A stretch of DNA of 31,600 bases from a virus (lineage: Duplodnaviria; Caudoviricetes), in the IMG/VR virus record IMGVR_UViG_3300020282_000011, positions 1-31,600 of that record; one strand, given 5' to 3'. Positions 26,604 to 31,210 of the stretch are shown here, one piece after another; positions within the stretch are counted from its first letter, which is position 1, and each line of letters opens with the position of its first letter. Made by a program: the position numbers and the translations under genes. Below the pieces are notes generated by a model. The model searched no databases and was not told where the DNA came from. It worked only from the letters and a program-made list of their open reading frames with translations.

Positions 26604-28550
26604 TTATTTCCTCTCTAAAACTCCATTTGAGTAACTTGAGGTATAGTAATCTCTAGTAAATACAACACCTGAAACATCTTCTCCTGATGCAATTACGTCC
26701 TTCAACATATTTATCGAACTATTTGAAACGTCTAAACTAACAAACAAATCTTTTAATCCAATAATATCATTTGAATCAGGGAATGCCTGTATTTCAATTA
26801 TATTATTTTGTGCCACTGTTGATGTGATGTTGATTGTGTTTAGTATTACCTCACCTTTTTTATAATCAACTAAACCAGCATCTTTAAGTAAAACTTGAAT
26901 ATTATTCTTTTCATCCCTAGTAACAACACTTATTGTTCCTTTCATACTTCCATCAAGATTTCCTGCAGAATCCTTATTAGGAATATCCGTCAAAAATGCT
27001 GTTGATGGACTTCCTGAAATTGTAAAACCTGTACTTTTTATATTATATCCAGCAGAATTAATATGAAACTTATTACCAAAACATAGTTCATATTGAGCAA
27101 ACTGATTTATTAAAGCCTTTAGGTCTCTTCTGATAATAATTTTTGTAATATTAGATGTAATACCATCATTAATTCTATCAATAAGTTGATTAACTTTACT
27201 ATACTTAAATCTACCGCCAAATTTATTCATCTCAACATTAGTTGCATGATTTTGCAATGCATTAATAACATTTGTTCTTAATGAAATTGGTGAACCCACT
27301 TTAGATGGGTCATAATAGACATTAGAATCAACCTCGACATAAAGAATTTTTAGGTCAACTATTTCATTATTGATACCAGCAACTGCGTAACTCTTGAGTT
27401 TATTTTTGATCTGCGTTTTGTCAAAATCAGATACGAATGTGCCATTTTTTGGTTTAATACTAATCTGAACTTTACCAAATTGTGGAGGGTCTAATTCTTC
27501 ACCACCAATGACAGCAACAGACTCCGTTTGGGGATAAATTTGATTAATTATTGCCTCATAATCTCTTGGTGTAACTGCTCTGTATTGTGCTGAGTAAAGT
27601 CTTGGTGCAAAATACTTAATAGAAGACACATCTTCAACTTCAGACCCTCTAGAAGCGTTTGTGACTGTAGTTATCGTTACGGTATCAGCAGGAGTAAAGA
27701 ATGTCCCATCATCCTTAGAAAATGTTCCTTGGAAACTAAAATTACTTGGTCCATTTCCATCTTGACCATCAGTTACAATATACGATGATGATATAATTGA
27801 ACCATTTTCTAACTTCTTACCAAAAAATCCATCTCCAAACAAAATCTCATATTTTTCATCCTGCACTTCTTGTGCGAGATAAATTTCTGAGTTTTTATTC
27901 AACTTTAATATGTTATCAACTCTTGAATACTTTCTTCCTTTTGTTGCTGTATTTGGATCTGAAACATGCACAACTAATGTCGAAGCATCAATATTTGGAC
28001 TATCGATGATAAATCTTTGATCAACTGATGTATTAACTCTAAAATTACGAGTTAAGTATGTTCCCTCATAAATTGAAATTTCATCATTAAATTGAGCAAA
28101 TGAATTGCCACCAATTGATTTTACTGAACTTGAAGTAATACTTTCAGGAATTGAAAATCTAAAAGTTGTATTTTCACTCGCACCGACACATATGAGACCT
28201 GCTCGTAATGTAATAAACCTTGGTGTTGCATCTGTTGTTGGACCTAAATCAATGTCATCAATTTTTATTGTAGCAATCGCTGCTCTTTTTGAGCGAGGAA
28301 CATAACCAATATTTCTTGCGAGTGAAACTACATTCTCTCGAATTGTCGCAGAATCTAAGAAAGATTCATTTGCTACTAAATTTGCATTAAATGCATTAAT
28401 ATAAGTGTTATATGCAAGGGTATCAATTAGAACTGAAAAATTAGACCCCTCAAAGTCAAAATCAGTAAAATTTGAATTTGATCGTAAAAAATCTTTGATT
28501 TGTACTTTGATATCATCAAAGTCTAAACTAGTGTACTGAGTAAATGGCAT
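26604..28550 (-). CDS. gp6: Baseplate wedge subunit gp6
   Basis: 648 aa with LDFDDIK...FTDFDFEGS, ESFLDSAT.RENVVSLAR.IGY.P.S, YEILFGDG and QYRAVT..DY motifs (baseplate J/gp6 family). Confidence 0.93.
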   Translation of the reverse strand: MPFTQYTSLDFDDIKVQIKDFLRSNSNFTDFDFEGSNFSVLIDTLAYNTYINAFNANLVANESFLDSATIRENVVSLARNIGYVPRSKRAAIATIKIDDIDLGPTTDATPRFITLRAGLICVGASENTTFRFSIPESITSSSVKSIGGNSFAQFNDEISIYEGTYLTRNFRVNTSVDQRFIIDSPNIDASTLVVHVSDPNTATKGRKYSRVDNILKLNKNSEIYLAQEVQDEKYEILFGDGFFGKKLENGSIISSSYIVTDGQDGNGPSNFSFQGTFSKDDGTFFTPADTVTITTVTNASRGSEVEDVSSIKYFAPRLYSAQYRAVTPRDYEAIINQIYPQTESVAVIGGEELDPPQFGKVQISIKPKNGTFVSDFDKTQIKNKLKSYAVAGINNEIVDLKILYVEVDSNVYYDPSKVGSPISLRTNVINALQNHATNVEMNKFGGRFKYSKVNQLIDRINDGITSNITKIIIRRDLKALINQFAQYELCFGNKFHINSAGYNIKSTGFTISGSPSTAFLTDIPNKDSAGNLDGSMKGTISVVTRDEKNNIQVLLKDAGLVDYKKGEVILNTINITSTVAQNNIIEIQAFPDSNDIIGLKDLFVSLDVSNSSINMLKDVIASGEDVSGVVFTRDYYTSSYSNGVLERK

Positions 28551-28551
28551 A

Positions 28552-28953
28552 TTATCTCGTTGGTTCTAATAAAAAACTAAAGGACTGAGTTGGAACTGCT
28601 AAACCAGATATATCAAAAAACACCTTAACTTCCAATTCATTTAAATCTGGTCTTCCAATCACATCTACACTAACATTAGTTACTCTTGGTTCAAAGTTAT
28701 TGATAGTTTCCTTTATTTGATCCTCAATAACATAAACAGTTGTTCTTGAAAAATTCTCAAACAATGATTCTCTAATGTCTGTACCGATCAAAGGGTTAAA
28801 AAACCGTTCTGTAGGTATTGTTTCAACTAAATTTCTCACTGATCTGGCAATCGCACGTTCATTCAACAGCACAGGCAAGTCTTTTGTCACTGGATGTGGT
28901 GAAAAAGACAAACTTATATCCTTAAATGCTCTAGATTTGCGTTGAATCGCCAT
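28552..28953 (-). CDS. gp25: Baseplate wedge subunit gp25
   Basis: 133 aa with FKDISLSF..HPVT.D, AI.RSV.NLV.T...ERFF.P..G and I.NFEPRV (GPW/gp25 family). Confidence 0.92.
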   Translation of the reverse strand: MAIQRKSRAFKDISLSFSPHPVTKDLPVLLNERAIARSVRNLVETIPTERFFNPLIGTDIRESLFENFSRTTVYVIEDQIKETINNFEPRVTNVSVDVIGRPDLNELEVKVFFDISGLAVPTQSFSFLLEPTR

Positions 28954-28971: not shown

Positions 28972-28979
28972 TATTTATA
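28972..28979 (-). promoter_or_regulatory. T4-type late promoter TATAAATA heading the baseplate operon
   Basis: Perfect match between the speD stop (28982) and the gp25 ATG (28953). Confidence 0.87.
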
Positions 28980-28981
28980 CC

Positions 28982-29338
28982 CTATCTTGTATAATCATTC
29001 ATCTCATAATCATCACTATCAAAGTAATCAAGTAACCACCATGCTACTGAACGGGGATTTTTGCTACCACAAGTAAAAATATCGACTGCAACACACTGTT
29101 TTTCTGGCCAAGTATGACAACAAAGATGACTTTCACCCAATGTGACAGTGCAAGTCACTCCAACAGGGTCAAATTGATGAGTATACGTATTTAAGACCCT
29201 TAGATTTTCAGTTTGACAAGCACTAACACACCTTTCTTCAATTTTCTTTGCATCATTTAACTTTTCAACGGAGACATTATAGACTTCAATGAGCAAATGT
29301 TGTCCCATATGGGCATTTTTTACTTTTTTCTTAATCAT
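28982..29338 (-). CDS. speD: Pyruvoyl-dependent S-adenosylmethionine decarboxylase family proenzyme (class 1b SpeD/SpeH-like)
   Basis: 118 aa with MGQHLL.E, HQF.P.GV, an intact ESH autocleavage site (29126-29134), HTWPE and DIFTCG. Substrate specificity cannot be read from the sequence. Confidence 0.9.
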   Translation of the reverse strand: MIKKKVKNAHMGQHLLIEVYNVSVEKLNDAKKIEERCVSACQTENLRVLNTYTHQFDPVGVTCTVTLGESHLCCHTWPEKQCVAVDIFTCGSKNPRSVAWWLLDYFDSDDYEMNDYTR

Positions 29339-29391
29339 GCTGATCCTATGTAGTCATCCATTGTAAAATCATCACTATCAAAGTAATCAAG
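29008..29391. repeat. Identical 25-bp blocks (29008-29032 and 29367-29391) marking a 359-bp tandem gene duplication
   Basis: aatcatcactatcaaagtaatcaag occurs twice. The 359-bp offset equals the offset between the two start codons (29697 and 29338). Confidence 0.93.
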
Positions 29392-29697
29392 AAAACAAAA
29401 TGCCAATCCACGGTTATTTTTTTCGCCACAAGTGTAGATATTGATCGTAGCACTTGCTTTTTCGGGACATGTAGTACAACAAATACGCATATCTTCCGTA
29501 GTAGCGGTGCAGGATACCCCAGAAAAACCAAATTTAATCGTTTCTACATCTAATTTCTTTGGTTTTTCATCTTTTACTATTAAAACACACCGTTCTTCAA
29601 TTTTTTTCTTACTTTTTAACTTGTCAGATTGAACATTACGCACTTCAAGAAGAAAGTGATGACTTACATAACTGTCATCAAAGGTTTTTTTAGTCAT
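29335..29697 (-). CDS. SpeD paralog lacking the pyruvoyl-forming Ser (predicted catalytically dead)
   Basis: 120 aa. It aligns without gaps to the neighbouring SpeD (53/118 identical by hand count). ESH is replaced by DMR (29485-29493) and HTWPE by TTCPE, while TCG and LDYFDSDD are retained. Confidence 0.85.
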   Translation of the reverse strand: MTKKTFDDSYVSHHFLLEVRNVQSDKLKSKKKIEERCVLIVKDEKPKKLDVETIKFGFSGVSCTATTEDMRICCTTCPEKASATINIYTCGEKNNRGLAFCFLDYFDSDDFTMDDYIGSA

Positions 29698-30145
29698 AAA
29701 TTACTCCATAATCATCTTCTAAGACCTCTTTGAGATAATTTTCATCCCAATAGTCATAATAATTGGTTTTTGCAAGTTTTTTTCTTGCTTCAGTAAGTTC
29801 TTTTCGTGGTTGACAAAGAACTAAGTTATATTTTCCGTTACTTGTTTGGATTCCTTGTATATATGTCTTCGTTTTTCCATGATCTGCAATAAATTTGTAG
29901 TCAGGATAGTTACGATTATAGTCATCAACTGCATCATATAAGAAATTTGCACTTATATCATCTTCCACCACGTAAATTATAACATCAAAATCATCTCTTG
30001 GCACGATTTGAGACAATTTTTCATCTACAATCTTAAAATTTGCCTTTGATGCATAGGGACATATTGCAAAATTACCTAATTCTGGTCTAATTTTTGATAA
30101 TTGACCAATCCAATGTAAAATATATCTACTTTTCTTGTCTCTCAT
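29690..30145 (-). CDS. Hypothetical protein, DUF1415-like (W...CPYA motif)
   Basis: The likely start is MRDKK at 30145, because the ORF-track start at 30178 overlaps the upstream gene more heavily. WI..LS...LGNFAICPYA resembles the DUF1415 W...LCPFA motif, and the C-terminal region has AR.KL....YY..W. Confidence 0.55.
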   Translation of the reverse strand: MRDKKSRYILHWIGQLSKIRPELGNFAICPYASKANFKIVDEKLSQIVPRDDFDVIIYVVEDDISANFLYDAVDDYNRNYPDYKFIADHGKTKTYIQGIQTSNGKYNLVLCQPRKELTEARKKLAKTNYYDYWDENYLKEVLEDDYGVIYD

Positions 30146-30782
30146 CAGGTGTTGTCCAAAAATAATCATCACAATCACCTAATCGACCCCAGTTTACATC
30201 ATTCTCAACCTCAAATATACGTGTCGAGACCTTAAAATCAGGTGTTTTAACTGGATCAGGTGTCATTGAGGTGTCATAAATCCGACAACGATTGTTTGGA
30301 TAGAGACAATACTGTCCATTTCGCAATTCAATTAGATTAAATGACTTATGTTCATCGGGCATCTCACTTGTTGATGGGTCAATCTGGTCAAAATCACCAT
30401 GATAGTTGTCTAAAGTACAAATATACTGTCCTTTTTGATTCCCAAAATGTCTTGTACGACATTCCCACTCCATCGGAGCAACAAATTGCTTGACAATCAC
30501 TGTAAAATCATAGTCCATACAATTCCAGAACTGTAAATTGACTAAATCCATGTCTGGATCAGGTGTGTTTGGTGACGAGAGAAACGCTGAAATTGGAAGT
30601 TTATCATACATCGCTCCATATTCAGGCAAATATGTCTCAAAATAGAAGGCACGACCTTGTATTGACTTGGCACATACCCAGATTCCTTCAATAAACTCTC
30701 CATGACCTGATTGAAAGTCAGTTAGATACTCTTTTCGTACCCATACTTTTTTTGTTGGTAGGTTTGCAATTAATTTTGACAT
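30126..30782 (-). CDS. Conserved T4-like cyanophage hypothetical protein
   Basis: 218 aa with LIANLP..KVWVRKEYL.D...GHGEF, YDKLPISAF, LQFWNC, EHKS and YPNNR. I recognise it as a widespread marine myovirus protein of unknown function. Confidence 0.75.
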   Translation of the reverse strand: MSKLIANLPTKKVWVRKEYLTDFQSGHGEFIEGIWVCAKSIQGRAFYFETYLPEYGAMYDKLPISAFLSSPNTPDPDMDLVNLQFWNCMDYDFTVIVKQFVAPMEWECRTRHFGNQKGQYICTLDNYHGDFDQIDPSTSEMPDEHKSFNLIELRNGQYCLYPNNRCRIYDTSMTPDPVKTPDFKVSTRIFEVENDVNWGRLGDCDDYFWTTPDERQEK

Positions 30783-31210
30783 GTTTCAAAGAAGTTAGAA
30801 ATCTCGTATCCCTGTAGTTTTGATTTATAATCGGATGATTCTCCAAGATAAAAGTAATCATATCCCAATCTCTTATATAATGCTATCTCATTCTTGTTGG
30901 CAACGTGCCCTAAACTCAGTTTTTTATTCTTATAATTCCATGCAAACTGATCCGCCCATACACTATTTACGCTCTTAAATTTATAAGCAAGAGTAAAGGC
31001 AGAGAGTTCATTTCCATCATAATATCCAATCACATCAGTATGTGGTAGTTCAAACTCTTCACGAAATATCGGAACAGTTCCCTTAAATTTCTTATAAGCA
31101 AGATAATCTTTATATACTTCTAAACATCTCTCAAAGGAAGAACTACCAAGAATACGATAGTTATGGTACTCTTGATAGTTTGTGTCCTTCAATCGGATTC
31201 GACAATACAT
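30770..31210 (-). CDS. ATE_C-like (arginyl/leucyl-tRNA-protein transferase C-terminal, GNAT fold) protein
   Basis: 146 aa. VYKDY, YYDGNEL.AF and LSLG......EI...K.LGY.YFYLG....YK......E follow the ATE1/Bpt C-terminal pattern SLG....L.EI..A...G..Y.YLGY......M.YK..F.P.E. Confidence 0.6.
   Translation of the reverse strand: MYCRIRLKDTNYQEYHNYRILGSSSFERCLEVYKDYLAYKKFKGTVPIFREEFELPHTDVIGYYDGNELSAFTLAYKFKSVNSVWADQFAWNYKNKKLSLGHVANKNEIALYKRLGYDYFYLGESSDYKSKLQGYEISNFFETCQN

Follow-up and report, generated by a model that had tools for sequence, protein, structure and literature searches.

A serine-less SpeD homolog upstream of an intact speD in a T4-like phage contig belongs to a small clade of its own

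Why would a phage keep, directly upstream of an intact speD gene, a second copy that cannot form the pyruvoyl cofactor? The question is raised by a single 31.6-kb viral contig with T4-like baseplate genes, which was analyzed over its whole length (hereafter the window). Among named isolates, its gp6 is best matched by Prochlorococcus phages P-SSM2 and P-SSM5 (65% identity), and this suggests a cyanobacterial host. An earlier note on this DNA had proposed that the two genes form a coupled enzyme/prozyme system. We find that the upstream gene is a member of a small serine-less clade, and that this clade, not the pair, is the object of interest.

Two SpeD copies in front of gp25

The genes around the locus lie on the minus strand in the order ATE_C-like ORF, 218-aa ORF, 162-aa ORF, serine-less speD, intact speD, TATAAATA, gp25 and gp6. 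The baseplate wedge subunits gp25 (28552..28953) and gp6 (26604..28550), both identified by profile matches, served as backbone markers. TATAAATA (28972..28979, minus strand), which we take to be the consensus of T4-type late promoters, was located between speD and gp25 by a motif scan; as the window holds three matches against 7.07 expected by chance, it is the position of this one that makes it a candidate late promoter. Overall, a promoter and terminator scan of the window gave matches at chance level. The 162-aa hypothetical ORF (29690..30178, minus strand; profile match to phrog_10325) overlaps the serine-less gene by 8 nt, and the same overlap is seen with the single speD of relatives. 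The 218-aa ORF (30126-30782, minus strand) matched phrog_3704, with the putative label ferredoxin (E = 3e-106), and no Pfam or NCBIfam family. The 146-aa ORF (30770-31210, minus strand) gave a weak match to Pfam ATE_C, the C-terminus of arginyl-tRNA-protein transferase (E = 1.8e-4; 22.5 bits, cut-off 25), and copies 67-93% identical to it occur in a subset of related phage loci; a candidate tRNA-dependent transferase-like gene in cyanophages may deserve a separate look.

The downstream speD (28982..29338, minus strand) codes for P0001, a class 1b SpeD proenzyme of 118 aa with E69-S70-H71, H75, W77, E79 and C90. The upstream gene (29335..29697, minus strand) codes for P0002, a homolog of 120 aa with D69-M70-R71, T75, C77 and N86, termed here the dead copy. 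An ATGA stop/start overlap (29335..29338, minus strand) joins the two. BLASTP confirmed a gap-free alignment, with 53/116 identities (E = 2e-38; 53/118 by hand in the earlier note), and the replacements described there, E69D, S70M, H71R, H75T, W77C and D86N, are all real. The residues E-S-H, H, W and D are present at those sites in each of the 80 intact relatives. The dead copy retains F56, S62, E79 and C90 in the alignment, and the motifs said to be kept are so in general, one being looser than implied (GVTCT becomes GVSCT). Both copies match Pfam AdoMet_dc (109.2 bits for the intact copy with PF02675, cut-off 25); at the TIGR03330 cut-off of 75.65 bits the intact copy passes (100.2) and the dead copy falls below (45.9). 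S70, H75 and C90 of the intact copy align to T. maritima S63, H68 and C83, which the accessible text of PMC10407285 gives as essential for self-processing. Judged by its sequence, the intact copy, with a Glu-Ser cleavage site and equivalents of His68 and Cys83, is a predicted class 1b SpeD. The dead copy has neither the cofactor-forming serine nor the processing histidine (M70, T75), and although its ORF is open it cannot form a pyruvoyl group, as had been claimed. Databases label such serine-less proteins S-adenosylmethionine decarboxylases, so that ocean-virome 'speD' counts include members unable to make the cofactor.

Mis-assembly of the tandem was ruled out. The metagenome contig L079 carries the same pair, with 12 differences in 5263 nt and none within either gene, and in four of four sequencing runs, from four studies, a contig spans the ATGA junction, differing by 1-2 letters. 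One of the four studies further contains samples flagged as possibly the source of the window. Hence, the pair is not an assembly artefact. The sequencing runs listed for this DNA included no RNA run, which is no evidence on expression. In both the window and L079 the two ORFs are in different frames and are split by a TGA stop. The database proteins P0005, P0009, P0012 and P0086 read through the TGA/TAG stop of these genes; they are likely to be gene calls made under other genetic codes rather than real fusions. Longer or fused SpeD forms were absent among 7999 candidates, which is weak evidence. The protein cluster of the dead copy has five variants, on 61, 11, 6, 4 and 4 contigs. Variants of the intact copy were also seen (P0007, P0011, P0015 and P0017), with identical first 84 residues and different C-termini, which suggests frequent recombination in the 3′ end of speD.

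A serine-less clade and the origin of the tandem

To learn how often two copies, one or none occupy the locus, related loci were scanned. A six-frame profile search found a second SpeD in none of 78 viral loci retrieved with the intact copy as query. Of 80 gp25-anchored loci, 45 had one speD, 24 none and 11 were too short, and of 80 gp6-anchored loci 43 had one, 19 none, 13 were too short and 5 lacked gp25; no locus had two in either scan (the scans overlap, and covered 24 and 14 of the 64 parts of the collection). The search proposed earlier, for serine-less SpeD beside intact speD, thus returned this lineage only (0/78 and 0/160 other loci). All 141 isolate records with a match had it at one place each. 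In P-SSM2 the 5 kb preceding gp6 carry no gene annotated as speD, and speD has been put at ∼0.2 copies per cyanophage genome in the accessible text of PMC9983427. In L103, L104, L107, L108 and L148, other, more distant intact speD clades are found upstream of gp25, which indicates that the locus was replaced repeatedly. In L092, L095 and L097-L100 the place of speD, just upstream of gp25, is taken by a short acidic ORF of ∼40 aa, and in L007, L013, L025, L055 and L057 an extra ∼600 bp, non-SpeD by profile search, lies between speD and gp25.

Such turnover bears on the main rival explanation, namely that speD is a dispensable accessory gene here and that the upstream copy of the window is a decaying relic on its way out, which we regard as possible though rather unlikely. 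The 24 gp25-anchored loci without speD favour it, as do the nearest backbones in the scans (L092, L095-L100), which lack the gene. L096 has only a speD stub (about 2150-2200), the last 9 codons before the late-promoter motif; it lies within a 51-nt run identical to the intact copy and spacer of the window, and its exact 27-mer occurs in 2 of 275 loci (L079 and L096). Were the relic view correct, one locus would offer a snapshot of auxiliary-gene loss, with an intact gene, a serine-less one, both, a stub only, or none.

Relatives of the dead copy were sought in a profile-free search of 1.84 billion representatives, which gave 11 matches. Among them, P0018 is 50% identical to the dead copy; its cleavage site reads E-T-R and its residue 75 is Thr. 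The cluster headed by P0018 has 55 members, and a second serine-less cluster has 9. Proteins with a readable motif fell into 67 with E-S-H/H, 16 with E-T-R/T, one with E-T-K/T and five with D-M-R/T. All 17 E-T-R/K proteins have Thr at 70 and 75 and keep W77-P-E, E69 and E79. This type is present on two viral contigs, L080 (38 kb) and L081 (31 kb), where the serine-less gene stands alone directly before gp25 and is the only AdoMet_dc match of the record. These records are 17% and 14% complete, respectively, so that an intact speD elsewhere in those genomes is possible. The relatives of the dead copy score 63-68 bits, under the TIGR03330 cut-off. No further serine-less locus was obtained: an alignment scan gave six loci, of which the two serine-less were L080 and L081, and two DNA patterns (2 matches in one case; 24, of which 2 SpeD, in the other) led to the same two. 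A dead-copy-only query, which came to one cluster among 2 protein-index candidates and one metagenome contig, had no match in viral contigs. Genome contigs held no serine-less locus, four sequencing runs compared with L080 gave no long contig of the serine-less gene, and a search of the ESM Atlas returned AdoMet_dc clusters only.

With 22 sequences, the dead copy, L080 and L081 grouped with bootstrap values of 98, 90, 92 and 96 in four codon ranges and 93 at third positions, and with 99 in a large tree. Y10, F15, G57, F58, T75 and T112 are common to the three, and R71 and G97 to the dead copy and L081; none of these occurs in the 80 intact sequences. The gp6 (100) and gp25 (97) trees give the same three-member phage group. 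It follows that the serine was lost in the ancestor of the lineage, that the serine-less gene travelled with this phage backbone, and, from the solitary genes of L080 and L081, that it can persist without an intact neighbour. The window copy has lost E69, T70, W77, D86 and P95, all of which, together with C90, are kept by L080 and L081.

The proposal that the dead copy serves specifically the phage SpeD next to it, as an activator or specificity switch, fares poorly here, and we give it very little credence. The two copies are adjacent, overlapping and of the same length, and ω is below 1; heterodimers can accumulate neutrally after duplication of a homodimer (PMC11066126, accessible text), and a SpeD fused to a degraded SpeD domain is described as active in Victivallis (PMC10407285, accessible text). 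However, in the closest relatives no intact speD lies beside the serine-less gene, and the dead copy has lost the histidine with which it would help a partner. The intact copy gives no sign of dependence: its ω is 0.066, its catalytic residues are all kept, and it is 86% identical to a solitary speD. Furthermore, the trypanosomatid prozyme relieves a class 2 N-terminal autoinhibition through an interface that, in the accessible text of PMC5201418, is absent from bacterial enzymes. Since related fragments carry the serine-less copy alone, it is likely that it is not a dedicated activator of its neighbour.

In some trees the intact copy is sister to the serine-less clade (support 92 in the large tree, 79 with 22 sequences), a point in favour of the prozyme proposal, but this placement fell to 49 without codons 100-116 and was absent for codons 4-60 and for third positions. 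A nucleotide tree without L080 and L081 placed the dead copy arbitrarily (support 14) and was dropped. A 25-nt tract (29367..29391, minus strand; codons 103-111) is identical in both copies, its partner lying at 29008-29032, and is identical in L081 too. Of the two ancestral junctions, the upstream one is found at the dead copy and the downstream one at the intact copy. Within the D-D-Y-I-G-S-A end of the dead copy, a segment of 25 nt (29339..29363, minus strand), located just before the intact start, is similar to the D-D-Y terminus that the 162-aa gene has in single-copy relatives. This likeness suggests unequal recombination at a microhomology, and the segment is likely to be the scar of the event that made the tandem. 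The order of events may have been an old duplication followed by loss in L080 and L081, or replacement and later regain.

Selection on the serine-less gene and its possible role

Selection was analyzed with our own codon models (MG and GY) on 12 sequences, codons 4-116 and a fixed tree. Against a background ω of 0.11 (MG) and 0.07 (GY), the serine-less clade gave 0.354 (MG; p = 3.5e-7 versus 1) and 0.211 (GY; p = 1.6e-12), and the L080/L081 tips 0.226 (p = 2.5e-5 versus 1). The serine-less clade is under relaxed but real purifying selection. A clade-stem ω of 42.6 was discarded: the synonymous length of that branch is close to zero, and the value lacks significance (p = 0.37). For the tip of the dead copy ω was 0.41-0.45 with MG, the model of better fit (p = 0.024 and 0.073), and 0.24 with GY (p = 0.007); it exceeds the background (p = 0.001 and 0.017) and does not differ significantly from the rest of the clade (p = 0.50 and 0.72). 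The earlier expectation that the dead copy does not evolve neutrally therefore holds firmly for the clade (p ≤ 3.5e-7), but less so for the window copy, with p from 0.007 to 0.073 and an ω of 0.65-0.9 on the clocks of the neighbouring genes. A fair reading is that the window copy is under relaxed constraint and is the most eroded member of the clade.

The values obtained on the neighbours' clocks favour a relic; the dN of the dead copy (0.28) approaches the synonymous distance of its neighbours on the same branch (gp6 0.43, gp25 0.31). Its changes do not avoid sites conserved in the family (30/52 kept versus 23/40, p = 1.0), and retention of the hydrophobic core is not above neutral (p = 0.35). 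On the relic view the frame stays open mainly because translation likely passes through it, from the 162-aa ORF (8-nt overlap) on to the intact speD (ATGA). In L080 and L081, however, the ORF is open and selected although no gene is coupled downstream. In simulations of neutral drift, which ignore indels, the share of runs with a stop-free frame was 0.7-1.2% at 0.3 substitutions per site and 0.1-0.15% at 0.65. Although one deletion would suffice to return the locus to a single gene, the dead copy has persisted over a synonymous distance of at least 0.3. The changes on the dead tip are also mildly conservative at 63 well-anchored sites (p = 0.046, 0.043 and 0.039 for three correlated measures), but not significantly so on a wider set of 92 sites (p = 0.27 and 0.22). 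A PSSM result of P = 0 for the 92 sites was discarded for bias: at positions where its relatives are derived, the dead copy still has the ancestral residue. On balance, we lean towards an upstream gene that is still selected, non-catalytic and independent of its neighbour.

The dead copy was modelled with an alignment that included intact relatives (pLDDT 87.8). The best structural match, by VIA search, was T. maritima SpeD 1vr7_A (Z 16.0, rmsd 2.2 over 110 residues), and the protein is likely to fold as a class 1b SpeD, an alpha/beta half-sandwich. In the model, a hairpin is made up of strands 60-66 and 70-77. Residue 70 is located at its turn, and residues 62, 75, 77 and 79 lie at the far end; the latter four, we infer, serve the active site of the partner across the dimer. 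A class 1b active site would be made of Ser70 and Cys90 from one protomer and Thr62, His75, Trp77 and Glu79 from the other; F49, W70 and E72 of T. maritima SpeD presumably have substrate roles. The dead copy lacks Ser70 for its own site and His75 (and Trp77) for what would be that of its partner. With both Ser70 and His75 missing, a mixed dimer would be impaired at both sites, and would more likely be poisoned than activated, contrary to the effect of prozyme on its enzyme. As the serine-less relatives are solitary, the partner available there would be host SpeD; marine cyanobacteria have their own speD (PMC1079782, accessible text).

We therefore offer as the best explanation, and tentatively, a folded non-catalytic decoy subunit that would pair with a SpeD enzyme, probably that of the host, and dampen it; expression, folding, binding and partner are all as we infer them. 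Against such a decoy, an enzyme and its damper in one genome are not obviously useful, and under the better-fitting model the tip ω is only weakly below 1. A complex prediction of intact plus dead copy scored 0.16 and 0.13 against a mark of 0.32 (35- and 45-row alignments; controls not folded) and carries no weight for or against pairing.

When residues were assigned to sides by strand alternation, without coordinates, novel residues numbered 9, 10 and 11 of 20 on the presumed partner-facing side versus 3, 4 and 5 of 17 in the core (p = 0.09-0.18), this side being the most altered part of the dead copy (11/20 versus 5/17, p = 0.18). This fits a remodelled interface, but it could also mean that pairing was lost. 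In the latter case the sheet face may have been remodelled to bind a small molecule (SAM, decarboxylated SAM or a polyamine) or an unrelated protein, which we consider unlikely. Besides the side bias, the charge gains H54D, T66D and H71R/K in the relatives, and the retention of F56 and E79 in all members and of W77 in the relatives, are consistent with a new binder; the bias, however, is not significant, and since the window copy has lost W77, D54 and D66, any such binding site is not conserved across the clade. The dead copy may still be an inhibitor of host or phage SpeD or a ligand-binding protein, both alternatives of the earlier note.

Alternatively, the relatives could be weak enzymes that self-cleave at Glu-Thr to give a 2-oxobutyryl cofactor, the Met70 copy of the window being a dead remnant, released once an intact speD had come to lie beside it. 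We think this highly improbable. All 17 E-T-R/K proteins keep E69, a hydroxyl residue at 70, W77 and E79 (L080 and L081 also D86 and C90), and the sole copy beside an intact speD, that of the window, lost exactly E69, T70, W77 and D86. In the human enzyme H243A is described as slowing rather than abolishing activation (PMC3975893, accessible text), but H75 and H71 are lost in all members, and T. maritima H68 is called essential in the accessible text of PMC10407285. The S70T replacement is one base change (AGT to ACT) and may be neutral, and no literature match was obtained for a threonine-derived ketobutyryl cofactor in pyruvoyl enzymes. Thr mutants of pyruvoyl enzymes process poorly.

In its more specific form, that a P-SSM2-like cyanophage pseudoenzyme poisons host SpeD, or else that Glu-Thr members use a threonine-derived 2-oxobutyryl cofactor, the claim is speculative and we would not expect it to hold; in both cases a phage metabolic gene would act in a new way, and with poisoning SAM would be spared or spermidine synthesis throttled during infection. 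If the clade is functional at all, it would represent a phage pseudoenzyme acting on polyamine or SAM metabolism. These ideas are cheap to test, as an E. coli speD-deletion assay is already in use for phage SpeDs.

Comparison with known systems

Class 1b SpeD (PF02675, TIGR03330; T. maritima 1vr7/1tlu and A. aeolicus 2iii) has the same fold and length as the dead-copy model (Z 16.0 and 15.5). Of the two copies, the intact one has the full set of processing residues and scores above the family cut-off, whereas the dead copy and its relatives lack the Ser63 and His68 equivalents and are below it.

Phage-borne class 1b homologs with altered function are known likewise from Li et al. 2023: in the accessible texts of PMC9992855 and PMC10407285, phage SpeD homologs have turned into arginine or ornithine decarboxylases, and in the former the SpeD of cyanophage S-PM2 is a true AdoMetDC. 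Those proteins keep the pyruvoyl serine, and no serine-less or duplicated phage copy is described in the accessible text. Nor was one found in the literature, mostly open-access; figures and supplements of Li et al. may bear on this.

The trypanosomatid prozyme is likewise a dead paralog without processing residues. According to the accessible text of PMC5201418, it displaces an N-terminal autoinhibitory segment of a class 2 enzyme, gives ∼1000-fold activation and always occurs with that enzyme; the relatives of the dead copy, in contrast, are alone at the locus in two of two records (14-17% complete). The prozyme has a class 2 fold, an autoinhibitory N-terminus and an extra dimerisation domain in that text, and the proteins described here are class 1b half-sandwiches of 118-120 aa. 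The dead copy has also lost the histidine contributed by the dead half of the human enzyme, if T. maritima His68 is taken as equivalent to human His243.

The closest structural precedent is the fusion of SpeD1 to a degraded SpeD2 in Lentisphaerota and Desulfobacterales (PMC10407285, accessible text), where, as in the C-terminal half of class 2 enzymes, an active unit stands beside a non-cleaving one. As described there, the fusions are one polypeptide with the active unit first, whereas here the genes are separate, the dead unit comes first and it can occur alone. Should the serine-less clade be functional, it would parallel, with separate genes, the 'active plus dead' step through which class 2 AdoMetDC has been proposed to originate.
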